Shown here one piece after another: positions 31,689-64,000 of a stretch of DNA of 64,000 nucleotides; positions within the stretch are counted from its first letter, which is position 1, and each line of letters begins with the position of its first letter. This DNA is from an uncultured Planctomycetia bacterium. Its GTDB lineage: Bacteria > Omnitrophota > Gorgyraeia > Taenaricolales > CAZCCH01. The stretch is taken from contig CAZCCH010000007.1 of assembly GCA_964497315.1 (NCBI GenBank), positions 4,503 through 68,502 on the forward strand. The letters are read 5' to 3'. The position numbers and the translations under genes were made by a program. The notes under the pieces are model-generated. The model made no database searches and was not told the origin of the DNA. It saw nothing but the letters and a program-made list of their open reading frames with translations.

Positions 31689-31700
31689 TATAGGAGAAAG

Positions 31701-33539
31701 ATGTTACCTTCAAGCAAAAAGGAAGAATTTAATATAGCAGACTACTGGCAGGTTATCCAGAAAAGAAAATGGGTTATTATAGCTAGTTTTTTAACCTTTT
31801 TTACAATCGTTGCCATTTATACTTTCAGAATGGTTCCTATCTATAGAGCCACAGCTGTGATTTTAATAGAAAGGCAGCGTCCAAAGGTAGCGCCAGTACA
31901 GGGAATGTATAACGTTAGGCTGATAGATAGAGAGTTCTACCAAACCCAATATCGAATATTGAAATCTAGATCTTTGGTAAAATTGCTATTTGAAGAGTTG
32001 AATTTGTATATAGATCCCGAATTTGCTGATTTAGATGATTCTATAGGCAGCTTCCTTAACAGGGTAACAGTAGAACCAGTAAAAAAAAGCAAATTAGTAG
32101 ACTTGAGCTTTGACGGCCCTGATCCTAATAAGGTTACTAAGATAGTCAATACCTTAGCAGGGCAATACATAAAGCAGGATGTGGAAAATGCAGCCAAGGT
32201 TTCCAGAAGCGCGGTAGAATGGCTATTAGGCCAAGTAGATACTCTAAAGGAGAGAGTAAGAGAGTCGGAAGAGGCACTCCAGAAATTCAGGGAAGAACAA
32301 AAAATAGTTATTACGCCAGAGTCTGAAAGAGAAATGACTACATTGATAGAGGTTTTAAAGAAGAAAGAAGCGCAGCTAGTAATAGAACTATCAGAGTTCT
32401 CTGAGAAATATGGCAAGAAACATCCTAAGATGATTATGCTGGAATCGGAATTGACATCTGTGAGAGCGAAGTTGGATCTTGAAACCAAAAAAGCCATTAC
32501 TATAGGCCAGGCAGGTATACAATTTAATGTACTGCAACGTGAAATGGAAAGCAATAAGCGACTATATGAAGCTCTTCTGAAGAAAGCGAAAGAAACAGGA
32601 GTAACAGAAGAATTACAAGTTAGCCAGATTAGGATTGTGGATAAAGCAGAAATACCTAAAAGTCCTATAAAGCCTGATAGAAAAATGAACCTCGGATTAG
32701 GTGCTTTTATGGGACTTGCGTTAGGTATTGCTCTGGTTATGTTCCTGGAATACATGGATAATACACTTAAAAATCCAGAAGACGTAGAGCAATGTTTAGA
32801 ACTTCCATTTCTTGGGTATATTCCTTCTAGCAAAAAAGAGGCAAAGAATGTCAACAAAATAGATTTGCTAGTACATCAACAATCCAAATCTGTAGTTTCA
32901 GAAGCCTATAGAGCCATAAGGACTGCTATGATTTTTGCCTTTGCGGATAAATCTACCAAGAGTATATTGATTACTAGCGCAGGACCACAGGAAGGCAAAA
33001 CTACCGTCAGTATAAATTTGGCTACTATTATGACCCAGGCTGGAGATAAGGTGCTTTTGATTGATGCAGATATGCGGTGTCCAAGAGTGCATAAGAGTTT
33101 TGAACTTGATATCAACAATGGCCTGAGCGAAATTCTGGTAGGAAAGATAAGCTTGGATTCTGCCATAAAGAAGACAGAGATTCCGAACCTTAGCGTTATT
33201 ACCTGTGGTTCCATACCTCCAAACCCTGCTGAACTCTTGGGTACTCAGAAAATGAAGGACTTTCTAAATGAAGTAAGCAGTAAATTTGACAGGGTTATAT
33301 TTGATTCTCCTCCCATCATAACTGTTACAGACTCCTCCATATTGGCCAATATAGTAGATGGTGTTGCCTTTGTAATCCAAGGAGGAAAAACTGCTATCGA
33401 ACTCGCATTACGGGCGAAGCAGAGATTGCAGAATGCCAAAGCCAATGTATTAGGAATAATATTAAATAATGTAGACATGGCTAAAGAGAGCTACTATTAT
33501 TACTATTATTCCTACGGATCCGATACCAAAAAGACCTAA
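31701..33539 (+). CDS. Polysaccharide co-polymerase with C-terminal BY-kinase (Wzc/EpsB-type tyrosine autokinase)
   Basis: Two TMs flank a periplasmic coiled-coil Wzz-like domain. Walker A SAGPQEGKTTVSINLA, Walker A' VLLIDADMR, Walker B VIFDSPPI. C-terminal Tyr cluster YYYYYYSYGS. Confidence 0.85.
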   Translation: MLPSSKKEEFNIADYWQVIQKRKWVIIASFLTFFTIVAIYTFRMVPIYRATAVILIERQRPKVAPVQGMYNVRLIDREFYQTQYRILKSRSLVKLLFEELNLYIDPEFADLDDSIGSFLNRVTVEPVKKSKLVDLSFDGPDPNKVTKIVNTLAGQYIKQDVENAAKVSRSAVEWLLGQVDTLKERVRESEEALQKFREEQKIVITPESEREMTTLIEVLKKKEAQLVIELSEFSEKYGKKHPKMIMLESELTSVRAKLDLETKKAITIGQAGIQFNVLQREMESNKRLYEALLKKAKETGVTEELQVSQIRIVDKAEIPKSPIKPDRKMNLGLGAFMGLALGIALVMFLEYMDNTLKNPEDVEQCLELPFLGYIPSSKKEAKNVNKIDLLVHQQSKSVVSEAYRAIRTAMIFAFADKSTKSILITSAGPQEGKTTVSINLATIMTQAGDKVLLIDADMRCPRVHKSFELDINNGLSEILVGKISLDSAIKKTEIPNLSVITCGSIPPNPAELLGTQKMKDFLNEVSSKFDRVIFDSPPIITVTDSSILANIVDGVAFVIQGGKTAIELALRAKQRLQNAKANVLGIILNNVDMAKESYYYYYYSYGSDTKKT

Positions 33540-36004
33540 TGACCCTATCCATTGAGAATATTTGTAATTTTTTGATCCAATCTTCATTAATTTTCCTTAT
33601 AATTTTTCTACCACTTGCCTTTGGTGCAGTTGAGGTGTGGTCAATAACAATAATGGAGTTGTTTGTTTTGTTTACAGTTTCCCTCTGGTTTTTCAGGATG
33701 GTTAACCAGAGGAACGTACGTTTTTTTAATACCGCCTTAAATCTTCCGATATTCGTATTTATAGCCTTTTGCCTGTTAACCTTCAACTTGTCTGTTTATA
33801 AGTACGCTACCAAAGTGGAATTATCTAAGCTGCTAGCCTTTACAGCCGTTTTTCTCACTATAGTAAATAACATCCAGACAAGGAGAAGGATAAACCTAAT
33901 GGTTGGGTCTATAATTGTCAGTGGGTTTATAGTGGCAGTGCTGGGTTTGGTTGTTGGATATGGAGAAGCAGGGAAGATATATTGGTTGAAGAGTAATAGC
34001 GGAATAATAAGCTCTTTGGGTCTTTACGTAAATAGGAATAATTTTGCAGGACTTATGCTAATGACAATTCCACTGGCCATGGGAGCAATGTTGACTAATA
34101 CAGAGATGGTAAGGAAGTTTCTATATGGGTTTATGGCTATTGTTATGTCAACGGCGCTTTTTTTAAGCCGGTCCAGAAGTGGTATGATAAGTTTTTTGGC
34201 CTGCCTTTGTTTTATAACGTTAATGTCGAAAGCGTCAAAAACCCTCCGTAAGAAAAACATCGTGATTATAACGTGGATATTGCTTGGGATGCTTGCTATA
34301 GGATTGGCAGCAAAAAATGTGGTTGTAGAGCGCTTGACAACTATATTAAACCCAAAACAGGCCATATCTTTACGTTGGGATACTTGGAGTGACACAGCAA
34401 AGATGGTAAAGGATTTTCCTGTTTTTGGTACAGGACTGGGTACGTTCCCACACGTATTCCCGCAATATAAAACTATGAGGCGAGATGTGTTCTTTACACA
34501 TGCCGAAAATGAATACATTCAAATTTTATCAGAAACCGGCATTTTGGGGTTCTCATTATTTTTATGGATAGTTCTGGTATTTTTCAAAAAGGTATTTTAC
34601 GAGCCATTTTGGCCTTTTTCGCATAAAACAAGAAAGGATCCTTATGTGTTAGGTCTGGGCCTGGGATGCTTAACCAGTGTATTTGCATTGAGCATCCATA
34701 ACCTTATGCATTTCGATTTGCACATTCCCTCAAATGCCTTCGTGCTTACTTCCATTATGGGCCTGACGATAGCTATAATCTATAACCGGATATATGAAGG
34801 CAGGGAGAGCAGCTTGTTGACTGAAAAAAGGTGGAATATCCCAAAAGGAATACCTCAAAAAATAGGATATTTTTCAGTGGCAGTGTTTTTGATAAGTGCC
34901 ATTATTCCCATAGGCAGGTTTTACATAGCTGATAGTAATGCCAGAGAGGTTGAATGGCTTTTGGCAGATAGGGAAAGCATTGTAAGCTTAACTGACATTG
35001 AAAAGCTGAAATTGGCGGCATACCTGGAACCAGGTTGCAGCTTTTACCATTATCTTTTGGGCATAGCATACGAAAGGGCATTGCAGATAAATCCTCTTCC
35101 CTACGAAAAGGCCATTATGCAGGAACCAATGAATGCAAAATATCATTTGAGGCTGGCGTTAATTTATGAGAAATTGGCAAACGCCGGAAATGAAGAATAT
35201 TTCAGTAAGGCAGAAAAAGAATATGTGAAGGCTGCAAGCCTTAGAGAAAATGAAGCCATTTATCAATATTATGCGTCCCGCTCTCATTTAGAAAGAGGGC
35301 ACAAAGATAGAATGATAGAGCGAGTTAAGAAAATGATAGAGTTGAGCGAATACGAATATATGGTTCGTTTTATCTTTGACGCAATAAAAATTAATGAAGG
35401 ATACCTTGGTGCGGTAGCGGATATTATAAATAGCATAACGCCAGGCAGGGTAAGAATTACAGATGATGAGGTTACTATTTTGCTTGAGGATTTTGAGAGC
35501 ACAAATGGCACAGGAATGGTTAAGTGGGCTGGTAATGCGGACTATGAAGTTAGAGAGCATAAAAAAATAAATACAGTTTCGTTTAGAGGCGAGCAATCTG
35601 AAATGCTAAAAATCTGCTATAAAGAAAGAGGCCAGCGTGATTACTGGAGGATTTTTACGGTAGACATTCCTTTGCTGTCACAGAGAAGAGCGGGGTTAAG
35701 GTTTCACATTAACTGCGAGGGCAATTTTGAAGGAAGGATAGTAGCAAATGTTTGCTATAAGGATGCAGAAGGAGATGTTGTTCGAACAGCAACTTTTAAT
35801 TCTCAGCAGAGAAGAGAGCTCGCTGGCAATTGGCTGCAATTTGAGATTGACGATATATATGGCAGGGCAAACGAATATGCTATTTCTCAGGGTTTAGGAA
35901 TCAATAAAATGGCGGTCAACTTCGTAGGGATTGACACAAGGGGATATTCAGGATCTATGTATATAGATGAATTTGAATTTTTTATAGAGAGACAAAGTGA
36001 ATAA
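33539..36004 (+). CDS. Wzy/O-antigen-ligase-like polymerase domain fused to TPR region and C-terminal CBM-like beta-sandwich
   Basis: About 430 aa polytopic with the Wzy_C-type loop FLSRSRSGMISFLA. TPR-like YHYLLGIAYERA, LRLALIYEKLAN. C-terminal domain ..WLQFEIDDIYG..GSMYIDEFEFF. Confidence 0.65.
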   Translation: MTLSIENICNFLIQSSLIFLIIFLPLAFGAVEVWSITIMELFVLFTVSLWFFRMVNQRNVRFFNTALNLPIFVFIAFCLLTFNLSVYKYATKVELSKLLAFTAVFLTIVNNIQTRRRINLMVGSIIVSGFIVAVLGLVVGYGEAGKIYWLKSNSGIISSLGLYVNRNNFAGLMLMTIPLAMGAMLTNTEMVRKFLYGFMAIVMSTALFLSRSRSGMISFLACLCFITLMSKASKTLRKKNIVIITWILLGMLAIGLAAKNVVVERLTTILNPKQAISLRWDTWSDTAKMVKDFPVFGTGLGTFPHVFPQYKTMRRDVFFTHAENEYIQILSETGILGFSLFLWIVLVFFKKVFYEPFWPFSHKTRKDPYVLGLGLGCLTSVFALSIHNLMHFDLHIPSNAFVLTSIMGLTIAIIYNRIYEGRESSLLTEKRWNIPKGIPQKIGYFSVAVFLISAIIPIGRFYIADSNAREVEWLLADRESIVSLTDIEKLKLAAYLEPGCSFYHYLLGIAYERALQINPLPYEKAIMQEPMNAKYHLRLALIYEKLANAGNEEYFSKAEKEYVKAASLRENEAIYQYYASRSHLERGHKDRMIERVKKMIELSEYEYMVRFIFDAIKINEGYLGAVADIINSITPGRVRITDDEVTILLEDFESTNGTGMVKWAGNADYEVREHKKINTVSFRGEQSEMLKICYKERGQRDYWRIFTVDIPLLSQRRAGLRFHINCEGNFEGRIVANVCYKDAEGDVVRTATFNSQQRRELAGNWLQFEIDDIYGRANEYAISQGLGINKMAVNFVGIDTRGYSGSMYIDEFEFFIERQSE

Positions 36005-47055: not shown

Positions 47056-48147
47056 ATGTTTTTGAATTTGCATGATTTGTTAACTTTAAAAATTGTAAAT
47101 TGCCCTGAAGCATTTAAAAAATTTATTTGTGATAATTTTCAATTTCAGATTTATGAAAACTCGGGACAAAAAGGGCCTTCATTGGAGTTTGTTGACAAAC
47201 TGCCGGTCCAGAAACCTGTTTATTGCCTAACCGCAGACACTGGTTACTACGCAGACAACTTTTTCATTATTGACTATAATAACAATAAGCTTGTAGTCCC
47301 CTTTGATTTGGATATTTGTAACTGGTGTTTGAAGTGCGAGAAGGATTTTGACCCGTTACGGCTTTATAATTTAATTGATGCCCTTGTTTTTCAATTTACT
47401 TTGTTTGAATGCAACTGCGCCTTTGTTCATGCCTCCTCGTGCGTAGTTAAGGGAAAGGGGGTGGCCATAAGCGGATGGAAAAAAACCGGTAAGACAGCTA
47501 TTGTGCTAAAGTACTTGTTTCAGGGCGCACAATTTATTTCGGATGATCATTGCATTGTTTCAAAGCAGGGCGAGATGTTTTCTTATTTGAGGCCGACATA
47601 TATACCATATGCCGCCTTGGACGATTTCCCACAATTAAAAAGAAAGATTCCTTTTCGCCTTCAGGCTAAAATCCCTATCAAGAAAATATGGGATCAGGCC
47701 TATAGATGTATGCCCAGAGGCAAGACGGTGGCAACGAAAATGTCTGATGTATTCAACAATTTGGCGCAGTTGCACTCGAATATCCCTATAAATTTTAAAA
47801 CGCTGTTTCCAAATTCGCTTACAGCGACTAAATTTGATCTACAGCTGTTTTTCTATATCAAAAAGTGGAATGGAGAAGATATATATTGTCAGAAGGTTGA
47901 TAAGCGGGTGCTTTCCGGGCGCCTTGCCCATTCAAGCAGATATGAATACAGGAGTTTTTTTGATTATTATCAAATATATCGTACCGCATTTCCTGACAGG
48001 GATAATGTCATGTTCAGAGAGTATGAATCTCGAATTGCCAATATCAGTTACGAGGCGCTTAAAAAGGCAGATTGTTACGATGTGCATATTCCGGCAGACG
48101 GCAATATTATTGAAGTAGCGGATTATCTTTACGAGAAGTTTCTATAA
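47056..48147 (+). CDS. HprK-related (HPr kinase C-terminal-like) protein with degenerate P-loop, embedded in the GT cluster
   Basis: CAFVHASSCVVKGKGVAISGWKKTGKTAIVLKYLFQGAQFISDDHCIV parallels HprK HA..v...g.GvLi.G.SG.GKS..al.L...G..lvaDD. Confidence 0.5.
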   Translation: MFLNLHDLLTLKIVNCPEAFKKFICDNFQFQIYENSGQKGPSLEFVDKLPVQKPVYCLTADTGYYADNFFIIDYNNNKLVVPFDLDICNWCLKCEKDFDPLRLYNLIDALVFQFTLFECNCAFVHASSCVVKGKGVAISGWKKTGKTAIVLKYLFQGAQFISDDHCIVSKQGEMFSYLRPTYIPYAALDDFPQLKRKIPFRLQAKIPIKKIWDQAYRCMPRGKTVATKMSDVFNNLAQLHSNIPINFKTLFPNSLTATKFDLQLFFYIKKWNGEDIYCQKVDKRVLSGRLAHSSRYEYRSFFDYYQIYRTAFPDRDNVMFREYESRIANISYEALKKADCYDVHIPADGNIIEVADYLYEKFL

Positions 48148-51314: not shown

Positions 51315-52262
51315 ATGAAATTGCTGATGTTACTTTTAAAACTTTTTCCAAAAAGAGCGCAGGTTGAAATAACTACCCGGTGCAATTTAGATTGCAAGAT
51401 GTGCCCGCGCTCAAGATATGGCATAAAACCGATGGATATGTCATTGGGAGCGTTTAAGAAGATACTGGATAAGCTTTCTTCCGTAAAAGAGATTACGATA
51501 TCCGGATGGGGTGAGCCGTTACTTCATCCCGATCTTGAAAAAGTAATAGATTATTGCTTGGAGGAAGGTAAGAAAATTAAGCTGACTACCAATGGGTTGT
51601 TGATTAATGATGCAAATTTAAAATATTTGATAAAGATAGATGAGATTACATTTTCCATAGACCAACTGGATGATGATAAACATTTAACCTTAGGGCATTG
51701 TCAGAAGATAGCGATTGAGAATATAAGAAAGCTTGCAGGGCAGAGAATTGGCAAAAAACTGCATATCAGGATACAATCGGTATATTACAGGGAGAATAAG
51801 AGAGATATTCTGGAAATAATCAAAATGGCAAAAGAATTGGGAATTGATTCTGTCAAGGTGATGCGAATTAACCCGCGCTACGGCCCGCCCGGGGCTTTTC
51901 CAAATATTTCACGAAATGAGCTTTTAGAATTTTATGGAGAAGCGAATAAATTCGCAAAGGCGTTAAAAATGAGAGTAGACTTCGTAAACTATGCCTTTTT
52001 CAAAGGTGCAGCAAGGATTATACACAAAATAAGCATGTTTTTTATCCTCCCGGCTTTAAAAATTTACTGCACAAGGGTTCTCAATTTTATTTATGTAAGA
52101 GTGGATGGGAAGGTAAGCCCCTGCGGCGGGATACGCGATTACATCATTGGCGATTTGTCAAAAGAAGACCTTGGGGCTATATATAAGAGCGAGAAAGTTC
52201 AGGATTATAGAAAGAATTATTTGGAGATTTGCAAAGGTTGTAGTTTTATGATTGACCACTAA
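51315..52262 (+). CDS. Radical SAM protein with twitch/SPASM-like C-terminus
   Basis: CNLDCKMCPRSRY. C-terminal SPCGGIRDY...CKGCSFM. Confidence 0.65.
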   Translation: MKLLMLLLKLFPKRAQVEITTRCNLDCKMCPRSRYGIKPMDMSLGAFKKILDKLSSVKEITISGWGEPLLHPDLEKVIDYCLEEGKKIKLTTNGLLINDANLKYLIKIDEITFSIDQLDDDKHLTLGHCQKIAIENIRKLAGQRIGKKLHIRIQSVYYRENKRDILEIIKMAKELGIDSVKVMRINPRYGPPGAFPNISRNELLEFYGEANKFAKALKMRVDFVNYAFFKGAARIIHKISMFFILPALKIYCTRVLNFIYVRVDGKVSPCGGIRDYIIGDLSKEDLGAIYKSEKVQDYRKNYLEICKGCSFMIDH

Positions 52263-53019
52263 AATGGCAAAAGATATGAAAATTCCTATAGTATTCTATC
52301 ATTCGCTTTGTGAAGAAAAAAGCGGCAATAAGTATTGCCTTGATAAAGATAAGTTTGAAAGCCAAATTTCCTATTTGGCCAAACACAGTATTGAGGTTCT
52401 ATCGGTATATGATGCGATGAATCTAAATAAGGCGCCTTTGAGCACCAACCCTGCTGTTATGGTTGCGTTTGACGATGGATGCGCAAGCCTGTTTAATTAT
52501 GCCTATGCGATTTTGAACAAATTTAACTTTAAAGCCCATATATTTATCGCGACAGACTTCATAGGCAAAGAAGGATATCTACAATGGGACCAGATTGTAA
52601 AATTGCATAAAGATGGCTTTATAATAGGTTCACATGGCCATTCGCATAGAAATCTCGCGACCTTGGGGAGTGAAGATATTTGCCGCGAATTACAAATTTC
52701 CAAATCGTTGTTGCAAGAAAAGCTGAATGTGAATATAGACATAGTTTCGCTTCCTCACGGAGGTTTCGATAAACATGTACTGGAGGCTATTGAGGAGACC
52801 GGTTTTAAAGCTGCTTTTACTTCAGTTCCTACGTATGGCATTTCTTGCGAAAATCTTTATGTATTTGGAAGATTTGCGATTCTTGCCAATACTAGCCAGG
52901 CTAAATTTGAAGCAATCGTGAATCACCGTCTGCGGGTTTTTGTTGCGGAGAACTGTTTTTATAGGATGAAAAAGCTTATTAAGCCGGTTTTGAAAATACT
53001 TAAAAGAGGACAAATATGA
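52252..53019 (+). CDS. Polysaccharide deacetylase (CE4/NodB homology domain)
   Basis: VMVAFDDGCASL (Asp-Asp metal motif) and IIGSHGHSHRNL (His-His). Confidence 0.8.
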   Translation: MTTKMAKDMKIPIVFYHSLCEEKSGNKYCLDKDKFESQISYLAKHSIEVLSVYDAMNLNKAPLSTNPAVMVAFDDGCASLFNYAYAILNKFNFKAHIFIATDFIGKEGYLQWDQIVKLHKDGFIIGSHGHSHRNLATLGSEDICRELQISKSLLQEKLNVNIDIVSLPHGGFDKHVLEAIEETGFKAAFTSVPTYGISCENLYVFGRFAILANTSQAKFEAIVNHRLRVFVAENCFYRMKKLIKPVLKILKRGQI

Positions 53020-54464
53020 AGATAACATTTTTGGTGCCTCCGATTTTACAGGGTACGAGAATAGCCGAAAGAGTAGCCGGTTGTTCTTATGTCCTTTATG
53101 ATGTCCCAAATATTTTCATGGTTTTGTTCGCTGCGGTTGCCAGAGATGCTGGCCATGAGGTTTCATATGTAGATTTTCCTGTGATGAAGAAAAGAAGAGA
53201 TGATTTTTTAAATTTCTTGAAAAATGATGATAGCCATGTTTATTTCATTTTTACAGTTGAGCTATCTGTGCAGACAGATATTCTGGCGCATCAATTGATA
53301 CGGCAAACAAGAGGAAATATCCCTTTGATATTCGCGGGCCCGGCCCCTTCACATCGTCCGGAGACGTTTTTGAAAGATGCCTATACCTATATTGTAAGAG
53401 GAGAGCCGGAGCGAACCATGATAGAGTTATTGGTTACCCTGGATACAAAGGGCGATTTTAGTCAGGTCAAAGGATTAAGTTTTATTAAAGACAGAGAAGT
53501 TGTTCATAACCTTCCGCGGGAATTAATAAAAAATTTAGACGATTTGCCGTTTCCTGCCAGAGATTTGGTGGATAAAAGTAAAGGCATGTATTTTAACCCA
53601 AAATTAAGAATTAGGCCGGTTACTTTAGTGCTAGGATCGAGGAATTGTTCCTATAGATGCATCTATTGCGTACCGTGCGCGTTAACTTTTGCGATAGAGA
53701 TAGAATATAAACGTTATTTTAAAAAGAAACCACCGGTGAGGCTTAGAAGTGCTCAAAATATTATTTCAGAGTTTAATTTGCTGAAGAAACAAGGGTACAA
53801 GGCAGTTGTTTTTCAGGATGACATTTTTATTTGGGAAAAACAGAGAACCATCGAATTCTGCCGCGGAATTAAAAATGTGGGCATAGTCTGGGGTTGCCAG
53901 GCGAGGGCAGATCATCTTTCCGAAGACTTGCTGAAGGAGATGGCTCAATCTGGGTGTAGGTATATTGATATCGGCATTGAATCATTCAATCAGGAAATAT
54001 TGGATGCTGTGAGAAAAGATTTAAAGGTGGAGGACTCTATCAGAGCCATAAAACTTATCAAGAAATATGGCATAGACGCGAAGATAAATATCATATTCGG
54101 AGCCACGCCACTGGAGACAAAGAAGACGATAAACCATACCAGAAAGATGGTAAAGAAGCTTAAGGTGAGTCAAGTCATGTATTCAGCATGTGCGCCATGG
54201 CCCGGCACTGAACTTTACGATATAGCCAAGAAGCAAGGATGGTTTGTTGATGGCGACTATAGGCCAAGCGATGGAGATAGAGAATCCATCATACAATTTC
54301 CCCATTTATCCAAAAAAGAGCTGGAATCTTTATTGAAAAAGGCAAATTTGGAATTCTTTTTAAATATTCGATTTATAATGAGAAATATTTTCAAAACCGG
54401 CTTGTTCAATGTCGCCAACCTTGTGGATTCTGTTAAGGCCGTATTCAGGAAAATAAGATGGTAA
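53016..54464 (+). CDS. Class B (cobalamin-binding) radical SAM enzyme, likely C- or O-methyltransferase-type
   Basis: N-terminal Rossmann-like B12-binding region. CSYRCIYCVP cluster. 482 aa. Confidence 0.7.
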   Translation: MKITFLVPPILQGTRIAERVAGCSYVLYDVPNIFMVLFAAVARDAGHEVSYVDFPVMKKRRDDFLNFLKNDDSHVYFIFTVELSVQTDILAHQLIRQTRGNIPLIFAGPAPSHRPETFLKDAYTYIVRGEPERTMIELLVTLDTKGDFSQVKGLSFIKDREVVHNLPRELIKNLDDLPFPARDLVDKSKGMYFNPKLRIRPVTLVLGSRNCSYRCIYCVPCALTFAIEIEYKRYFKKKPPVRLRSAQNIISEFNLLKKQGYKAVVFQDDIFIWEKQRTIEFCRGIKNVGIVWGCQARADHLSEDLLKEMAQSGCRYIDIGIESFNQEILDAVRKDLKVEDSIRAIKLIKKYGIDAKINIIFGATPLETKKTINHTRKMVKKLKVSQVMYSACAPWPGTELYDIAKKQGWFVDGDYRPSDGDRESIIQFPHLSKKELESLLKKANLEFFLNIRFIMRNIFKTGLFNVANLVDSVKAVFRKIRW

Positions 54465-57326: not shown

Positions 57327-58475
57327 TTGTTGGATATATACGAGAATAACAAGAGGAAGAGCAGAATAGTGAAAAGGGTTTCTAACATTGTTATCATTGG
57401 AGCTGGTCCGATAGGCTGCTATACTGCACAATTACTAAAGAGAAAAGGTATTAACCCTGTTCTAATTGAAGAGCATAAGCAGATAGGCAGACCTGTTCAT
57501 TGTGCCGGAGTATTAGGTAGTCAGGTATTTAGCAATATGCAATTGCCCATACCTGAGAAATCTATCAAAAATAGAATCGATGGAGCTATAATTGCCCATG
57601 ATAAGAAGAGCTTTGAAATTAAGAGAAAAGGCGTAGCATTTGTAGTTGACAGGGAAGTATTTGATAAAGAGCTTGGAAAAGGATTGGATGTTAATTTTGA
57701 AACCAAATTTATTGGCTTTGAAAAGAATAAAAAAGGTTATTTGATAGAAACAGACAAAGGAGAGTTTAAAGCAGATATATTGATAGGTGCTGACGGTGCA
57801 AGGTCTCACGTCAGAGAGGTAGGAAATTTCAAGGCGAACATTACTTATAAAAGAGGGGTTCAATTTAGAATAAAAACCAAATTGGACCTAGGGAGTTTCG
57901 TTGAAGTTCACTTAAGGAAACCATATTTTTCATGGCTTATACCTGAAGGCAAGGGAATAGTCAAGGCAGGTATTATTTCTGACAACCCCTACCACGACCT
58001 TGTAGAATTTCTAGATAAACGCAAGATTAAAGGTAAGATATTGAATAAATTTGGTGGTCTTGTACCCAGAGGTAACTGTCAGACTACAGATGGGAGCGTT
58101 GCCCTGATTGGTGATGCTGCTTGCCAGGTCAAGCCTTTGAGTCAGGGTGGTATTTATTATGGGATGAAATGCGCAGAGATTTTAGTGCACTGCATAAAGA
58201 ATGGCAGGTTAGGTGATTATGATAAAGAATGGAAAAAGCAGTTTGGCAGAGAGATGCAGATTAGCTCGAAGATTAAAAAGTTTTATGAAGGTTTAAATGA
58301 TGGCGATCTTGAGCAGGTATTTGATTTGATTAGAGAAAATTCAGGTACGATAGAAAAATTAGGGAATTTCGAGAATCATTCTTTTGTTATATTGAAAATA
58401 ATGAAAAATCCAAAAACGCAAAAAAAGATCGGTGTTATATTATGGAATTTAATGAAGAAGAGAATGCTGGGATAA
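57327..58475 (+). CDS. FAD-dependent oxidoreductase (geranylgeranyl-reductase / flavin-dependent dehydrogenase family)
   Basis: Rossmann VIIGAGPIGCYTAQLL. GDAACQVKPLSQGGIYYGM. Separated from the EPS array by a 288-nt gap. Confidence 0.65.
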   Translation: MLDIYENNKRKSRIVKRVSNIVIIGAGPIGCYTAQLLKRKGINPVLIEEHKQIGRPVHCAGVLGSQVFSNMQLPIPEKSIKNRIDGAIIAHDKKSFEIKRKGVAFVVDREVFDKELGKGLDVNFETKFIGFEKNKKGYLIETDKGEFKADILIGADGARSHVREVGNFKANITYKRGVQFRIKTKLDLGSFVEVHLRKPYFSWLIPEGKGIVKAGIISDNPYHDLVEFLDKRKIKGKILNKFGGLVPRGNCQTTDGSVALIGDAACQVKPLSQGGIYYGMKCAEILVHCIKNGRLGDYDKEWKKQFGREMQISSKIKKFYEGLNDGDLEQVFDLIRENSGTIEKLGNFENHSFVILKIMKNPKTQKKIGVILWNLMKKRMLG

Positions 58476-59548
58476 TCGTAGCAGAGAAAAAGAACCCAAG
58501 GCTTTCAATTATATATGTCTACCTTATGAATAGCTGCAACCTTAACTGTATCCATTGTTGGGTTAATCCATCCTTTACAAGAGAAAAAGAGAAAAAAAAT
58601 CACCTAAGTATTACAAAGTTTAAGAAGATATTTGACCAAGCAGTTAAATTAGGCTTAAAGAAGGTAAAATTGACTGGTGGAGAGCCACTCATATACCCGC
58701 ATTTCGTAGAACTTGTTGAGTACTTGAAGGAACAAAAAATCAATATCACTATGGAAACCAATGGTACGCTTATAACTGAGAAGATTGCAGATGCAATTAG
58801 AGATTCCAGTTTTTACCACGTAGCTGTTAGTTTAGATGGGGCAGGGCCTAAGACCCATGAGAGGGTACGTCGTGTAAAGGGTGCGTTTAATAAAACATTA
58901 GAGGGGGTCAAGAGATTGACATCCAGGAAAATTCCTACCCAGATAATCATGTGTGTATATAAAGATAATATGCAAGACATAGAGGCTGTAGCGAAACTAG
59001 CTCAGGATATAGGCGCCAATACTTTGAAGTTAAACTACATAAATATTCTGGGGCGCGGTAGGTTTATGAAAGAAGAGGGCGAGCTTCTTTCTGTTAAAGA
59101 AATAATAGAACTTGACCGTCACATCATGGAAAAGGTTTCTGAAAAATATAAAATTGGCTTTTATTCAAATACTCCTATGGCATTCGAATCCTTAAGGGAT
59201 CTTAGGCGAAGACATGGCACATGCCATATCCAGAACATATTGGGCATATTGGCAGATGGCAAGGTATCAATCTGTGGCATAGGAGAGGAGGTTAAAGAAT
59301 TGGTTCTGGGTGATGCTACAAAAACTCTCTTGACGGAAATATGGAGTCAGAATTCTATTCTGCATTATATAAGAGAAAATATCCCCAATCAGCTGGAAGG
59401 TGTATGTAGCAGATGTATTTTTAAAAGAAAATGCCTAGGTTGTTGTATTGCCGAGACTTATACCAGAACAGGAGATTTCAAAAGCCCTTTCTATTTTTGT
59501 CAAAAGGCCTATGAGGAGGGTGTTTTCCCGCAGTCGAGGTTGGTGTGA
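58442..59548 (+). CDS. Radical SAM/SPASM-domain enzyme (peptide-maturase / anSME-like architecture)
   Basis: CNLNCIHCW. Auxiliary clusters CGIGEE and CSRCIFKRKCLGCCIAETY. 368 aa. Confidence 0.75.
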   Translation: MEFNEEENAGIIVAEKKNPRLSIIYVYLMNSCNLNCIHCWVNPSFTREKEKKNHLSITKFKKIFDQAVKLGLKKVKLTGGEPLIYPHFVELVEYLKEQKINITMETNGTLITEKIADAIRDSSFYHVAVSLDGAGPKTHERVRRVKGAFNKTLEGVKRLTSRKIPTQIIMCVYKDNMQDIEAVAKLAQDIGANTLKLNYINILGRGRFMKEEGELLSVKEIIELDRHIMEKVSEKYKIGFYSNTPMAFESLRDLRRRHGTCHIQNILGILADGKVSICGIGEEVKELVLGDATKTLLTEIWSQNSILHYIRENIPNQLEGVCSRCIFKRKCLGCCIAETYTRTGDFKSPFYFCQKAYEEGVFPQSRLV

Positions 59549-59557
59549 GGCGATAAA

Positions 59558-59851
59558 ATGTTAACTGCAAAAAGATATATCCGGATTAACAAGAATATGC
59601 TTGAAGTTGGATTTTCTAAAGAGAAGATTATTGGAAAGGTTGTCAGGAATAGATTTTGTTCACCGTGCCTTTTGAATTACACATCCAGACTTATATGGGA
59701 TGAGCTAAAGAGACCTTGCGCAATCGAAAGACTGGCAGAGAAACTAAAGAGAAGGTTTTTAATCAGCAGAAAAACAGCTATAGATGATACAAAAAGGACA
59801 ATCAATATATTGGAAAAAAGAGGTTTTGTAAGGGAGTGCAACAGAAAATAG
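59558..59851 (+). CDS. PqqD-family protein (RiPP recognition element-like), copy 1
   Basis: 97 aa. RLIWDELKRPCAIERLAEKLKRRFLISRKTAIDDTKRTINILEKRGFV fits the PqqD pattern (W..l.g..tv.ei...l...y.v......Dv..fl..L...gli). Confidence 0.6.
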   Translation: MLTAKRYIRINKNMLEVGFSKEKIIGKVVRNRFCSPCLLNYTSRLIWDELKRPCAIERLAEKLKRRFLISRKTAIDDTKRTINILEKRGFVRECNRK

Positions 59852-59863
59852 GAGGCAGCTATT

Positions 59864-60136
59864 ATGGATAAAGCCATAAGACCTAGAAGAAAACCGAATA
59901 TAATCTCAAGACAAGATGAAGAAAGGCTTTTATGTAATACTGAAAATGGTGACATTAAAGTTTTGAACAGCACAGGTGCTTTAATGTGGGATTTGTGTGA
60001 TGGAGAACATGCAATGGGTGACATTTTAGACGAAATAACCAAGAAATTCAAGGTTAAAAAAGAAGTTGCCGAGACAGATTTGAAAGAATTTCTTGAAGCA
60101 CTAGAGAAACTGAATTTTATAAATATGGGAGGATAA
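59864..60136 (+). CDS. PqqD-family protein (RiPP recognition element-like), copy 2
   Basis: 90 aa. VLNSTGALMWDLCDGEHAMGDILDEITKKFKVKKEVAETDLKEFLEALEKLNFI. Confidence 0.7.
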   Translation: MDKAIRPRRKPNIISRQDEERLLCNTENGDIKVLNSTGALMWDLCDGEHAMGDILDEITKKFKVKKEVAETDLKEFLEALEKLNFINMGG

Positions 60137-60140
60137 TTAT

Positions 60141-61193
60141 TTGAAACTGCACGCCCCCTTGTCAATTTGCCTATGTATAACTAATAAGTGCAACCTTTCC
60201 TGTAAACACTGCTTTGTCGGGGACAGGCCTGATGCTGAACCTGATCTTACGCGCCAAGAGATGCTGGACTTGATAGATGAGTTTGGCAAATACAAGGTTT
60301 TTGGTACTACCGTCTTTGGCGGAGAACCATTCACCAGTCCTTATATATATGAATATATGGATGCTTTAAAAAAATATAAGATAAAATTGGGACTGAATAC
60401 TAACGCGACGCTTATTAAAAGAAAAGATGCACAAAAGCTGAAGCACGAGTATGGTGTTGAAAACATATGCGTTAGCCTTGATGGTTCCTCGCCTGATATT
60501 ATGGATAAGACGAGAGGGGCAGGTTCTTTCAATAGGGTATTGAGAGGTATAAAGCTTTTAATAAGTGAAGGCCATGAGATATTATTAGGTACGACCATAA
60601 CAAAACTTAACTACATGGATGCAGAAAATATAGTTAAACTCGCCAAAGATATAAATGCCAAAGGAGTACGTTTTAACCATGTATTCTTTACCGGGAATGC
60701 AAGCTGTTTTATGAAAGAAGTATACCTTGACCTAAAAGATGAAGTTCAAATCTTAGATAGAGTTTATAATCTATACAAAAAATATGGAAATTTTATCACA
60801 GGATCTTACCTGTCCCAGAGGAAAAAACTCATGAAGCTGGAAAAGTTTCCACCCAAGCATGATAAAATTAAAGTTTCACCTTGCGGGGCAGGAAAGACAA
60901 GATATGTCATAAGGGCTGACGGTTGGGTTGTACCGTGTGAGATCTTATGGAATGTAAAAGTAGGCAATGTCAGAAAGCAATCCCTGCGCGAAATCTGGTT
61001 TTCTAAAGGCATGGAGGAATTTCGTAAGCCTCTTACTATAGATCTTGAGGATATGCCTGAGTGCAAAGGATGTAAATATCAATATATGTGTTTCCATGGA
61101 CATCGTTGCTGGCCATATTATTATCCTAATGGCATGGAAGATAGAAAGCTACATTGCTGGAAGAGGTTAAATGAAGAAACCGTTCTATGTTAA
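60141..61193 (+). CDS. Radical SAM/SPASM-domain enzyme, second copy
   Basis: TTG start with GGAGGA RBS. CNLSCKHCF. Auxiliary CGAGKTRYVIRADGWVVPCE and CKGCKYQYMCFHGHRC. Confidence 0.75.
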   Translation: MKLHAPLSICLCITNKCNLSCKHCFVGDRPDAEPDLTRQEMLDLIDEFGKYKVFGTTVFGGEPFTSPYIYEYMDALKKYKIKLGLNTNATLIKRKDAQKLKHEYGVENICVSLDGSSPDIMDKTRGAGSFNRVLRGIKLLISEGHEILLGTTITKLNYMDAENIVKLAKDINAKGVRFNHVFFTGNASCFMKEVYLDLKDEVQILDRVYNLYKKYGNFITGSYLSQRKKLMKLEKFPPKHDKIKVSPCGAGKTRYVIRADGWVVPCEILWNVKVGNVRKQSLREIWFSKGMEEFRKPLTIDLEDMPECKGCKYQYMCFHGHRCWPYYYPNGMEDRKLHCWKRLNEETVLC

Positions 61194-62166
61194 TATTGCA
61201 GAGATGACATTAAAGGTGGAGGGTGAGTATCCCCGGTATTTACTCAATGCATATGAGGCCTTTATGGCCACTTCCGCAATTAATAAGCCTTTTATATTAG
61301 AATATGTCGATTGGCAAAGAAAGCCAAAATACCAGGGCCATCAAAATTTAGAAACAATAAATACCACTTTGCATAAAAACCTTGAAGGAATTTCAAGTGC
61401 TCCAATTAAAAATAGACTAAAAAAAACACAATTTCTCCTGCCACTTTTAGCTGAAAACTCCATTATGTGGAACAGATACAGTCGTCTTCCTGCTTCGAAA
61501 AAGAAATCATTGCTGATCAGCAAATTTCTTTTTACATATAATAAGAATAATTTCTCTTTTTATCGATGGGGAGCCGGGAGTTTATTCATAGACCATTATT
61601 TGCGGCAGGCAAAATTTGTTATATTTGAGCATAGTGAATATCGCAAAGCCATGGGTATCCCCATGAAGGTTATAGTGAGGGATATGCTTGGTGGAAAAGG
61701 GTTTTTGCTGCATGCAGCAGGCCTGTTACAAGATAACAATGCGTATATTTTTGCAGGTAATTCAGGTGAAGGTAAATCTACCATAACTAACATACTAGCC
61801 CATAAATGCATCTTGAGCGATGAAACCATCATAGTTAAAAAAAGAGAGGGAGTTTATATTGGCCATTCAACCCCCTGGAACAGTCAAGGTCGCTTTAATC
61901 ACGTAAGTGCCAGCGGGCCAATTAAGGCGTGCTTTTTTATAAAAAAGTCCAGAAGGGTATATTTTAAGAGTATTTCACCGGCCAATACGTTTTTGAGATT
62001 AGCGGATAATATGACACATATTCCAGCGAAAAGTAGGACTCAACTGAAGACCCGATTAAACATGCTTGCAGATTTTAGCAAGAAGACTTGCTTTTACCAA
62101 ATGTATTTTAGAAAAGATGATTATTTCTGGACCAAACTCAAAAAACAGGTCATAGATGCAAGATAA
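61171..62166 (+). CDS. HprK-related kinase-like protein (HPr kinase C-terminal-domain fold, intact P-loop)
   Basis: GFLLHAAGLLQDNNAYIFAGNSGEGKSTITNILAHKCILSDETIIV. Confidence 0.6.
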   Translation: MKKPFYVNIAEMTLKVEGEYPRYLLNAYEAFMATSAINKPFILEYVDWQRKPKYQGHQNLETINTTLHKNLEGISSAPIKNRLKKTQFLLPLLAENSIMWNRYSRLPASKKKSLLISKFLFTYNKNNFSFYRWGAGSLFIDHYLRQAKFVIFEHSEYRKAMGIPMKVIVRDMLGGKGFLLHAAGLLQDNNAYIFAGNSGEGKSTITNILAHKCILSDETIIVKKREGVYIGHSTPWNSQGRFNHVSASGPIKACFFIKKSRRVYFKSISPANTFLRLADNMTHIPAKSRTQLKTRLNMLADFSKKTCFYQMYFRKDDYFWTKLKKQVIDAR

Positions 62167-64000
62167 AGAAAAAGATATTTTAAATAGCTCAAAGTATCTA
62201 CGTTTTTACATAACAACGGCCAGTATGTACCCCGCATTGCAGGTTGGGGATATAGTAATAGTAAGAAAGACATCACTCAGAGAGATTAAAAAAGGAGATA
62301 TAATTACCTTCAATGCAAAGAATAAAACGACTAAATTGACACACAGGGTGATAGGTGTAAAAAAGGGCGAAGGCATATTGAAGTTGCATACCAAAGGAGA
62401 CAGTGCTATTAGTGAAGACTCTTGTCCTGTGACTGAAGATAGTTTAGAGGGTAAGGTTATAGCAGTAATCAGGAAAAATAGCATAATAGAAGTAGGTACT
62501 AGAGGTCAGCGCAGAAAGGCCTGCGTATCTGAAAACCTACAACTGCTAAAAAAGCTTAAGCATCAGCTGTCAGACCAAATTAGAAAGCTTGTATTTATTA
62601 TATTTTTTGGCCTTTTGGTAAGCTTGACAGCTGCCTTCCTGCCTTATCTGTCGAAGCCAATGATTGATATAGGTTATGGCGATAAAAATATCAAGATGGT
62701 TTTAATAATAGCTGCTTTAGCGACAGCAGCCTTTATCTTAAATGCAGTCCTTAAGTCAACTTTTCAGTTTCTTTCCAGCCGCTTGCAGCAAAAGTTGTTA
62801 TTTGAATTTGACCAGGCATATATACAAAAATTATATTTTTTGCCTGTTTCTTATTTTACCACAACCTCTACTGGAGAACAGCTATATAGACTCAATAGTA
62901 ATGCAAGCGCGCTATCAGGTCTTATTGCCTCTAAATTTCCAAAGTTGCTGACCGTGGCTTCAAAGACACTTTTTTATTTAATGCTTGCGTTTGCAATTAA
63001 TTTCAAACTAGCTCTTTTGTTAGTACTATTTTTACCGCTTTTTATCTGGAGGTCCGCGTATTTTCGGAGGAAAGGTTTGGCTGAATATAAGAGATCAGTT
63101 TATTTATCCCAGGGTGTCTCCAAAAAAATGCAGGATGTTTTATCTAAGATCTATCTTATGAAGGCATTGGGTGCCGAAGAGCATGAGAGGAGGAATTATG
63201 CCGACCTATTAAGACGCAAGGTCCAATTAAACCTGAAAATTGCCAGTTTGCGGGTACTAAATACATTAACATCAACTTTTTTAAGTAGAGCAGCCTTAAC
63301 TATTTTGGGCCTAGTGGGTATGTTATTGGTTATAAAAGAGGTTATGACTTTAGGCAGCCTTACTGCTTTTATAGCTTATTGTGGCCTGTTTTTGTCAGCT
63401 ACTATGAGCCTAACTAATAGTATTGAAAATATTTCTAAAGACAGTGTTCATGTAAGCAGATATTTTGAGATTATGGATATGGATGCAGGGGCAAAAGAGA
63501 AAGCAGGAGCTAAGTACATTTACCCGTTCAAAGGCAAGATAGAATTTCAGGATGTGTCTTTTGGCTATGATAAAGACAAGTTGATCCTGGAGAATTTTAA
63601 TATGCAAATTCAACCAGGCAGTTGGGTATTGATAAAAGGAACCTCTGGTTGCGGCAAGACTACCTTACTAAAATTAATTTTAAGGTTTTATGACCCCAAG
63701 AAAGGAAAGGTCCTTATAGATGATATAGACATTCAGGATATAAAGGTTCGTTCGTTGAGGGATAATATTGCTATTGCGATCCAGGATGTAATGCTTCTGA
63801 ATGAAAGCGTGAGAGATAATATAACTTATGGACTATCAAATAAGACGTTGGAGGACATAAGAGACGTTGCACGGGCGGCCTGCATAGACTCGTTTATTCA
63901 AACGCTTCCAGATGGATATGATACAATGGTGGGTGAAAATGGGGCATGCCTTTCAAAGGGACAGAAACAAAGAATTTGTCTGGCGAGAGCACTAATCCGA
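62156..64000 (+). CDS. SipW/Sec11-type (S26B, Ser-His) signal-peptidase domain fused to an ABC exporter (TMD + NBD); 3'-partial
   Basis: Absent from the ORF track because no stop occurs in the window. ATG 62156 overlaps the upstream stop. Peptidase boxes TASMYPALQVGDIVIV, THRVIGV, LHTKGDSAISEDSCPV parallel B. subtilis SipW SGSMEP..GD, THRI, TKGDNN..D..V. Six-TM region follows. Walker A GTSGCGKTTLLKLI and signature LSKGQKQRICLARALI. Confidence 0.75.
   Translation, partial: MQDKEKDILNSSKYLRFYITTASMYPALQVGDIVIVRKTSLREIKKGDIITFNAKNKTTKLTHRVIGVKKGEGILKLHTKGDSAISEDSCPVTEDSLEGKVIAVIRKNSIIEVGTRGQRRKACVSENLQLLKKLKHQLSDQIRKLVFIIFFGLLVSLTAAFLPYLSKPMIDIGYGDKNIKMVLIIAALATAAFILNAVLKSTFQFLSSRLQQKLLFEFDQAYIQKLYFLPVSYFTTTSTGEQLYRLNSNASALSGLIASKFPKLLTVASKTLFYLMLAFAINFKLALLLVLFLPLFIWRSAYFRRKGLAEYKRSVYLSQGVSKKMQDVLSKIYLMKALGAEEHERRNYADLLRRKVQLNLKIASLRVLNTLTSTFLSRAALTILGLVGMLLVIKEVMTLGSLTAFIAYCGLFLSATMSLTNSIENISKDSVHVSRYFEIMDMDAGAKEKAGAKYIYPFKGKIEFQDVSFGYDKDKLILENFNMQIQPGSWVLIKGTSGCGKTTLLKLILRFYDPKKGKVLIDDIDIQDIKVRSLRDNIAIAIQDVMLLNESVRDNITYGLSNKTLEDIRDVARAACIDSFIQTLPDGYDTMVGENGACLSKGQKQRICLARALIR

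Follow-up and report, generated by a model that had tools for sequence, protein, structure and literature searches.

Every bifunctional protease-exporter of ribosomal peptides known to us pairs a C39 cysteine protease with double-glycine leaders. Can a protease of another kind occupy the same position? The question is raised by a gene at the end of a 64,000-nucleotide stretch of DNA (hereafter the window; positions 4,503 to 68,502 of contig CAZCCH010000007.1, assembly GCA_964497315.1) from an uncultured bacterium that GTDB assigns to the Omnitrophota. In this gene, a Ser/His domain of the S26 peptidase type and an ATP-binding cassette (ABC) exporter form one open reading frame (ORF); the catalytic residues are in register with those of signal peptidases, the domain has the S26 fold and no membrane anchor, the gene stands in an operon of peptide-maturation type, and peptidases of the same type are encoded in related cassettes. 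We consider it moderately likely that the product resembles the peptidase-containing ABC transporters (PCATs) in being bifunctional, with a cytoplasmic S26B-like domain that removes the leader of a peptide modified by radical S-adenosylmethionine (rSAM) enzymes and an ABC core that exports it.

A peptidase and an exporter in a single reading frame

The gene occupies one continuous frame of 615 codons without a stop, from 62156 to the end of the window. Its ATG follows directly upon an in-frame TAG (62153-62155) and is therefore the earliest possible start, which fixes the N-terminus of the fusion protein; the start of the gene overlaps the stop of the upstream ScmC-like gene by 11 nt. Because the frame runs past the window end, the gene is missing from the program-made list of ORFs, as the first-pass annotation had remarked. 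The rest of the gene came to light when 1.84 billion representative proteins were scanned exhaustively with HMMER: the complete protein was recovered (P0002, 688 amino acids, identical to the window translation over all 615 residues). Nine metagenome contigs encode this protein; four of these locations, each from a different sample, are in JGI and ENA assemblies. Uninterrupted, identical ORFs in independent assemblies exclude a frameshift between separate peptidase and ABC genes, as well as an assembly artefact.

Pfam models match the window protein in the order Peptidase_S26 (PF10502, residues 16-68, 34-37 bits against a cutoff of 22.9), ABC_membrane (PF00664, residues 145-414, 89.9 bits) and ABC_tran (PF00005, residues 478-614, 92.1 bits), and the Pfam and NCBIfam domain matches are far above chance. 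The C39 peptidase model (PF03412) gave no match in the fusion protein at E<=1. The initial proposal that a Sec11-type Ser/His domain stands where a C39 domain is expected is thus borne out by family hidden Markov models (HMMs), residue register, fold and the lack of a C39 match.

The peptidase domain

The first 135 residues match the archaeal signal peptidase I model sigpep_I_arch of NCBIfam (TIGR02228) with 80.6 bits (E=1.1e-22; curated cutoff 51.85), and residues 1-115, the segment assigned at first pass to the endoplasmic reticulum (ER)/archaeal type, pass the same model. A comparison with SipW had also been offered. It holds for the type of chemistry; orthology to SipW is rejected because the SipW equivalog model (NF046067; cutoff 190) gives only 49 bits, and the analogy with the TasA/SipW system is limited to chemistry. 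The Pfam S24 (LexA-like) model also matches the domain weakly, with 24 bits.

In a phmmer search of PDB sequences, residues 16-88 align with human SEC11C and SEC11A (E=1e-5), which places in register Ser23 with Ser56, His63 with His96, Asp82 with Asp116 and Asp88 with Asp122 of SEC11A (residue numbers obtained by counting in the alignment; at the position of Ser23, the 9rjb chain of SEC11A has Ala). Catalytic roles for these SEC11A residues are reported from the structure of the signal peptidase complex. The three sequence boxes reported earlier are all present (SMYPAL at residues 23-28, THRVIG at 62-67, TKGDSAISED at 79-88), and an alignment of 54 homologues answers the question whether they are conserved among S26B members: M24, P26, H63, R64, G81 and D88 are invariant; S23, D48, T79, D82 and G99 are each at least 90% conserved; and Ser23 is invariant within the anchorless set described below. 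A Ser, an Asp and a His general base in register point to S26B chemistry and not to the Ser/Lys chemistry of S24 and S26A enzymes; the LexA type is rejected on the same ground, as the predicted base is His rather than Lys.

An AlphaFold2 model of the domain built on the 54-homologue alignment (pLDDT 92.6, pTM 0.82) consists of a beta-rich core (residues 14-112) and a long helix (residues 116-139). Foldseek ranks SEC11C and SEC11A (7p2q_A, 7p2p_A) first among PDB structures for this model (E ~1e-4, TM-score 0.55-0.58), with SipA, the LexA C-terminal domain, Escherichia coli signal peptidase I and SpsB as lower matches.

The N-terminal transmembrane anchor that signal peptidase I has, which puts its active site on the outer or lumenal side, is absent from the fusion protein; many S26B enzymes have a C-terminal anchor as well. 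Only 22 residues, all hydrophilic, precede Ser23, and the maximal 19-residue hydropathy within residues 1-140 is 1.14, whereas the six transmembrane helices from residue 145 onward score above 2. The 54 aligned S26B-like sequences fall into two classes. In the anchored class (41 sequences, fragments included), 40-120 residues containing a hydrophobic segment above 2.4 precede the Ser, and after a conserved GKV come first 'xxxIPxxG' and next another hydrophobic segment; in the anchorless class (13 sequences, including the window protein and P0003, the second fusion introduced below), at most 38 residues without a hydrophobic segment precede the Ser, and a basic hairpin 'GKVxxxx[RK]xxxxxxL' replaces 'IPxxG'. 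The window domain is assignable by sequence to this distinct anchorless subgroup. A linker rich in basic residues (residues 113-146, nine K/R against two D/E) joins it to the exporter. In all solved ABC exporters of this fold the N-terminus and the elbow helix are cytoplasmic, so a peptidase domain without an anchor of its own should likewise face the cytoplasm, as C39 domains do. This predicted location argues against activity on Sec signal peptides, which is not expected of the domain.

The exporter

The six-helix transmembrane domain and the nucleotide-binding domain (NBD) with Walker A and LSKGQ signature, both recognized at first pass, are upheld by Pfam, motif positions and structural modelling. 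A full-length AlphaFold2 model from 64 sequences (pLDDT 92.0, pTM 0.83) shows helix 116-137 continuing directly into the first transmembrane helix, TM1 (residues 139-176), followed by further long helices and the NBD; the best PDB folds found by Foldseek are TM287/288, TmrAB, PCAT1 (~650-680 columns), MsbA and TAP. Walker A (GTSGCGKT, residues 495-502, 63638-63661), the signature (LSKGQ, residues 599-603, 63950-63964) and, beyond the window, Walker B (ILILDE, residues 619-624) were located; both Walker motifs are intact, as is the catalytic Glu. The best whole-protein HMM matches are generic TAP/MsbA-type models, and the PCAT models are not reached (TIGR03796, 225.4 bits against a cutoff of 853.3; TIGR01193, 191.3 against 523.85). 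The exporter is a half-size transporter that presumably acts as a homodimer.

The operon and related cassettes

Five genes from 58442 to 62166 and the fusion gene lie on the same strand, closely packed or overlapping (Table 1). The models of the SynChlorMet (SCM) cassette are the best matches and remain below their cutoffs, so the cassette is related to SynChlorMet without being a member of it; the fusion gene, translationally coupled to its neighbour, closes a SynChlorMet-like operon of the type that makes RiPPs (peptides synthesized ribosomally and modified after translation).

Anchorless S26-like peptidases are also encoded as separate genes beside ScmC, rSAM, PqqD or NTP_transf_5 genes in a series of loci (L006, L007, L009, L010, L015, L050-52, L082 and L100), and adjacency in the order ScmC, S26-like gene is conserved in the window, L005, L007 and L052. 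The neighbours of one protein, P0011 (in L008), are housekeeping genes only. Separate ABC exporters in two of the loci rank among the closest relatives of the ABC part of P0002: that of L010 is 34% identical without gaps over 494 residues, that of L009 is 32% identical, and the L010 exporter and P0002 have in common a PYL[SA]K stretch, the Walker A sequence SGCGKTT and LSxGQKQR. Peptidase and exporter are therefore two components of one type of system, encoded apart in related loci and joined in the window gene; by the classic gene-fusion argument, this points to a functional link.

Two features of these loci deserve mention in their own right. Fusion to a GNAT domain (L082, L100) is a third architecture of the anchorless peptidase, the others being standalone and fused to ABC; it would be compatible with a role late in processing, and one might speculate that removal of the leader is thereby coupled to acetylation of the N-terminus so exposed. 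In addition, NTP_transf_5 genes repeatedly adjoin the anchorless peptidase or ScmC (L009 4800-5981; L050 686-1240; L051 1923-3125, minus strand; L105 5985-7229), and KDO-pathway genes (L009) and GT9 genes (L006) are in the vicinity as well.

Table 1. Features of the fusion gene, its operon and related loci (window positions unless a locus is named; genes of related loci in the order given)
Feature	Location	Strand	Evidence or remarks
S26B-like peptidase/ABC exporter fusion gene	62156..64000	+	Residues 1-615 of 688; remainder in P0002 and L001-L004
Anchorless S26B-like peptidase core, beta-rich, residues 14-112	62195..62491	+	TIGR02228, AlphaFold2, Foldseek
Ser23 codon (AGT), predicted nucleophile, ASMYP box	62222..62224	+	SEC11A alignment; conservation
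His63 codon (CAC), predicted general base, THRV box	62342..62344	+	SEC11A alignment; conservation
Asp82...Asp88, TKGDSAISED box	62399..62419	+	SEC11A alignment; conservation
Basic linker/elbow helix, residues 116-139, joins peptidase to TM1	62501..62572	+	AlphaFold2 helix; charge count
Transmembrane domain, type IV ABC exporter, residues 140-440, six long helices	62573..63475	+	Pfam, hydropathy, AlphaFold2/Foldseek
NBD, N-terminal part, residues 460-615	63533..64000	+	ABC_tran 92.1 bits; motifs
ScmF-like rSAM/SPASM	58442..59548	+	TIGR04251 363.7 bits, E=1e-108, cutoff 400
Second, diverged PqqD-like protein	59558..59851	+	Pfam PqqD 30.1 bits, cutoff 23.4
PqqD-family chaperone, ScmD-like RiPP recognition element (RRE)	59864..60136	+	Pfam PqqD 54.4 bits; lasso PqqD 43.5 bits; ScmD 37.1 bits, cutoff 100
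ScmE-like rSAM/SPASM	60141..61193	+	TIGR04250 163.9 bits, best match, cutoff 400; Pfam Radical_SAM and SPASM
ScmC-like P-loop protein, HprK-related, 331 residues	61171..62166	+	TIGR04249 36.9 bits, cutoff 125; HprK_rel_A 29.6 bits, below cutoff; precomputed PF27840 ScmC
ScmC, rSAM, peptidase	L006/L019		Candidatus Saganbacteria metagenome-assembled genome (MAG)
ScmC, peptide, peptidase	L007		
ScmC, peptidase	L052		
Peptide, peptidase, two rSAM, ScmC, ABC exporter	L010-12		
ABC exporter, NTP_transf_5, rSAM remnant, peptidase ... rSAM, PqqD, peptide	L009		
rSAM, peptidase, rSAM, PqqD, peptide, two rSAM	L015		WOR-3
Peptidase adjoining NTP_transf_5	L050, L051		
Peptidase with C-terminal GNAT domain	L100 1740-2591	+	Acetyltransf_1 50.9 bits
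Peptidase with C-terminal GNAT domain	L082 9205-10158	-	Acetyltransf_1 28 bits

A second fusion and the rarity of the architecture

The sole other fusion found among the 1.84 billion representative proteins is P0003, 46% identical, encoded on a contig of 1.1 kb with 2x coverage (L005). There too a ScmC-like gene precedes the S26-ABC gene with the same overlap, and all catalytic residues are kept. No further fusion was found among the best 150 of 7,423 matches to the N-terminal domain, in 99 full-length matches (the next-best ABC protein, at 36% identity, has a bPH_3 domain and an unrelated context), among the 120 best matches of a profile of the anchorless class, or in 94 loci bearing the related peptide motif described below; fusions of greater divergence may lie beneath these matches. 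A word-indexed homologue search with residues 1-210 yielded one ordinary S26 protein only, the exhaustive search being needed for P0002 and P0003, and DNA patterns derived from the alignment of the two fusions matched only unrelated DNA in genome and metagenome contigs, so that the source genome is not one of the GTDB representatives. The fusion is rare, with two lineages in the proteins scanned. In a searchable library that is incomplete, no report was found of an S26 or S24 domain fused to an ABC transporter (domain-architecture databases lay outside this search), of anchorless S26-like peptidases in RiPP clusters, or of SynChlorMet or ScmC; the S26-ABC fusion is apparently an undescribed way to join leader removal and export.

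Candidate precursor peptides

No Cys-rich small ORF was found in the intergenic gaps of the window. Just past the window end, a gene for a 76-residue peptide with six Cys (L001 7404-7634, minus strand, equivalent to window positions 64169-64399; MKEEKQEYIPPKIEGLFPLSKSIAQCMLGEIGDALCDEGEAPDGGPCGGGSVPPTQPTCSPGDIAEACGDGYTVTE) is preceded by a sequence resembling a ribosome-binding site, GGAAAGGA, and is present on all four contigs of the source organism that were examined. Related loci likewise encode small Cys-rich peptides, with a common leader motif [WY]xx[PF][EK]Ixx[ILV]. The segment Y-I-P-P-K-I-E-G-L of the 76-residue peptide matches the leader motif of the L007 peptide (Y-E-P-P-K-I-Y-E-L) and that of the larger family described next. 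Only two matches to the pattern [WY]..P[EK]I..[ILV] are present in the 140,726 six-frame codons that the window and the DNA downstream comprise; inside the window there is one chance match only, within a large gene.

A degenerate DNA pattern for NPEQAVL[ST]CC was searched in GTDB representative genomes and in metagenomes, and found in 37 stretches of the former (L013-L049) and 57 of the latter (L054-L110). The genome stretches are nearly all from Candidatus Omnitrophota MAGs, one of which (STF1_137) has more than 30 copies of the peptide, and the rest are from Candidatus Saganbacteria, WOR-3 and Schekmanbacteria. From L013-L049 and some of the related loci, 58 distinct peptides were extracted, which have in common a Lys-rich N-terminus; a leader W-x-x-[PF]-E-I-x-[KR]-[IV]-[KR]-L-NPEQAVLSCC; a hypervariable stretch that holds 'QC' and one or more additional Cys; and a nearly invariant C-terminal Ser-Ser. 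The family is also encoded at L006 864-1040 and 1752-1937, L009 12987-13190 and L010 444-641; most of its copies are scattered and not close to maturase genes. The candidate peptides matched no family in Pfam or NCBIfam, and the NPEQAVLSCC motif was in no paper found in the same incomplete library; these peptides apparently constitute a large undescribed family of precursor-like proteins.

No double-glycine leader is evident: the 76-residue peptide has no GG, GA or GS leader end before its first Cys, and the related peptides have NPEQAVLSCC. Under the rule of small residues at positions -1 and -3 of S26 substrates, possible cleavage sites might be S-I-A|Q-C in the 76-residue peptide and D-Q-A|R in the L007 peptide; for the large family, either E-Q-A|V or V-L-S|C might serve.

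Proposed function and alternatives

In the mechanism that we favour, the PqqD-like proteins would bind a small Cys-rich precursor, for which the 76-residue peptide is the candidate, through its N-terminal leader; the two rSAM/SPASM enzymes, and perhaps ScmC, would modify it; the modified precursor would be passed to the exporter; the S26-like domain would cut off the leader at the cytoplasmic face; and the ABC core would translocate the core peptide. Coupling of leader removal to export had been suggested at first pass, and the operon context, the adjoining candidate precursor and the separate-gene relatives are consistent with it; we infer the coupling itself, as we do the substrate, the cleavage site and the catalytic activity. 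A broader proposal, to which we would give somewhat less than an even chance, is that anchorless S26B-like peptidases are a hitherto unrecognized class of cytoplasmic RiPP leader peptidases, serving the large family of Cys-rich peptides that rSAM/SPASM enzymes and ScmC mature and that Omnitrophota, Saganbacteria, WOR-3 and their relatives encode in dozens of copies per genome, and that in the window gene the PCAT principle of cleavage before export was arrived at anew, independently and with serine-protease chemistry. If a Ser/His S26-type domain does act in the C39 position, the cleave-and-export design evolved more than once; the RiPP toolbox gains a leader peptidase with a different specificity; and there is an entry point to the precursor and product of SynChlorMet-type cassettes. 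Together, the fused and separate-gene versions link peptidase, exporter and Cys-rich peptides of uncultivated phyla in one testable pathway, and the fusion is informative mainly because it ties an unrecognized class of peptidase to an undescribed family of peptides.

A number of observations weigh against a PCAT-like function. The gene of the 76-residue peptide lies outside the window and runs towards the ABC gene from the opposite strand, with an overlap at the 3' end of the latter; it is near a transposase-like HTH_28 gene (L001 7759-9087, minus strand), beyond which lies a gene of more than 1,500 codons; and its product has neither the NPEQAVLSCC box nor the C-terminal Ser-Ser of the larger family. 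An S26-like gene is on the contig in only two of the 57 metagenome peptide loci, and no clear site of the Ala-x-Ala type is common to the leaders of all subfamilies. In the exporter, the H-loop His is replaced by Gln655 (TTIVVAQKSS, beyond the window) and the signature reads LSKGQ in place of LSGGQ, so that ATPase activity may be reduced or its cycle slowed or altered. The second fusion has an in-frame TAG (L005 965-967) after residue 209, in the transmembrane domain, beyond which the same frame resumes as ABC transmembrane domain; given the 2x coverage, a sequencing error might explain it, as might a pseudogene or recoding. The ScmF-, ScmE-, ScmD- and ScmC-like genes all score under the curated SCM equivalog cutoffs (TIGR04248-TIGR04251), and the operon is embedded at the end of a polysaccharide locus of ~30 kb.

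This last circumstance makes another cargo possible: the exporter might serve the polysaccharide or envelope locus, with the peptidase acting on an unrelated protein or cleaving itself, as LexA does, to regulate the transporter. Wza/Wzc/Wzy genes (29070-36004) and many glycosyltransferase genes (up to 51278) precede the cassette, followed by genes for an rSAM/SPASM enzyme (51315-52262), a deacetylase, a B12-dependent rSAM enzyme (53016-54464), a FemAB-like protein, a GT2 glycosyltransferase, a sugar-phosphate transferase and a flavoprotein; related loci contain GT9, KDO-pathway and NTP_transf_5 genes; and the generic TAP/MsbA-type models and the weak S24 match would suit such a role. We judge it unlikely, if worth keeping in view, since the 11-nt overlap with ScmC and the recurrent adjacency of ScmC and S26 genes tie the fusion to the peptide cassette, Cys-rich precursor-like peptides are encoded within the same loci, and the predicted base is the His of S26B rather than the Lys of S24/LexA.

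Alternatively, the S26-like domain might be a docking or chaperoning module that does not cleave, any leader removal taking place elsewhere. There are precedents in HlyB-type exporters, whose C39-like domain binds the substrate but does not cleave it, and in the non-catalytic S26 homologue SipA of Streptococcus pyogenes, which is among the fold matches; moreover, the candidate precursors allow no defined cleavage site, and the TKGD box is degenerate (TRPD) in the S26-GNAT protein of L082. The C39-like domain of HlyB, however, has lost its catalytic residue, whereas Ser23, His63, Asp82 and Asp88 are kept in the window protein and in L005 and are near-invariant in the family, which leaves a purely docking role quite improbable.

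Membership in the archaeal/ER-type signal peptidase I family by HMM would suit a conventional signal peptidase fused to the transporter with its active site outside the membrane, as in SipW and Sec11, but no transmembrane segment or signal peptide is present in residues 1-140, 'IPxxG' and the C-terminal transmembrane segment are replaced, and the domain lies before the elbow helix and TM1 of a fold with a cytoplasmic N-terminus; a canonical periplasmic signal peptidase is rejected on these grounds of anchor and topology and has very little probability. That two genes were joined by assembly or sequencing error is hardly credible, for although the only other copy has an in-frame TAG at low coverage, its peptidase-to-TM1 junction is uninterrupted and the TAG lies later, the 688-residue ORF recurs unbroken on nine contigs, and AlphaFold2 models one continuous helix across the junction.

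Comparison with known systems

Like the PCATs (PCAT1, ComA, LagD, LahT; TIGR01193/TIGR03796), the fusion protein has an N-terminal peptidase, a six-helix type IV transmembrane domain and an NBD in one chain, is encoded with peptide maturases and a candidate precursor, and presumably follows the same logic of cleaving the leader and exporting the core. It differs in that its peptidase is a Ser/His beta-barrel of the S26B type rather than a papain-like C39 cysteine protease, in falling far under the PCAT HMM cutoffs, and in a candidate leader without the double-glycine motif. With S26B signal peptidases I (SEC11A/C, archaeal signal peptidase I, SipW) it shares family, fold and Ser/His/Asp boxes in register; unlike them it has neither an N-terminal nor a C-terminal anchor, carries a basic beta-hairpin in place of 'IPxxG', is fused to a transporter and is predicted to be cytoplasmic. 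The fusion is thus PCAT-like in its proposed action but without C39 domain and double-glycine leader, and S26B by sequence, residues and fold but without the anchor.

A short anchorless domain of the S26 type is likewise found in SodX (TIGR02754), the maturation protease of nickel superoxide dismutase, which works in the cytoplasm and cuts the N-terminal propeptide from its one dedicated substrate; the similarity is weak (26.5 bits, E=7e-6, over the whole 90-position model, below the cutoff of 63.25), the gene context is different, and SodX is not fused to a transporter.

The SynChlorMet cassette has the same set of gene types as are found directly upstream of the fusion gene, and its models are the best for the two rSAM enzymes and ScmC, whereas the window genes are all below the equivalog cutoffs. 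The description of that cassette is not known to include an S26 peptidase, an ABC exporter or an identified precursor.

Clusters of the lasso-peptide type (paeninodin, pseudomycoidin) combine tailoring by HPr-kinase-like and NTP_transf_5 proteins with a PqqD RRE and an ABC exporter, and their peptides are phosphorylated at a C-terminal Ser. Here as well there are a PqqD-like RRE, an HprK-like P-loop protein and an ABC exporter, with NTP_transf_5 as a neighbour in L009, L050, L051 and L105, and the terminal Ser-Ser of the peptide family matches the phosphorylated position; the NTP_transf_5, KDO-pathway and GT9 neighbours and the Ser-Ser terminus together resemble the phosphorylation and glycosylation tailoring of some lasso peptides. 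Instead of a lasso cyclase and a transglutaminase-like B2 protease, however, the present cassettes have rSAM/SPASM enzymes, Cys-rich cores and an S26-like protease.

Other features of the window

A second HprK-related P-loop protein is encoded among the glycosyltransferases, ~13 kb upstream of ScmC (47056-48147, plus strand; TIGR04355 HprK_rel_B, 33.9 bits, below cutoff). Together with the additional rSAM/SPASM and B12-dependent rSAM genes, it suggests that the sugar genes may belong with the peptide cassette to one larger pathway. At the other end of the window, a giant ORF of 2,562 codons (11-7699, plus strand), in which one fn3 domain is the sole Pfam match and which is otherwise uncharacterized, probably encodes a surface protein. 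An ORF of 748 codons (17394-19640, plus strand) joins the solute-binding protein domain SBP_bac_1 to the ABC importer permease domain BPD_transp_1, which is an uncommon combination in a sugar importer. Further downstream are genes for a GH94 phosphorylase (23299-25662) and a phosphoglucomutase.

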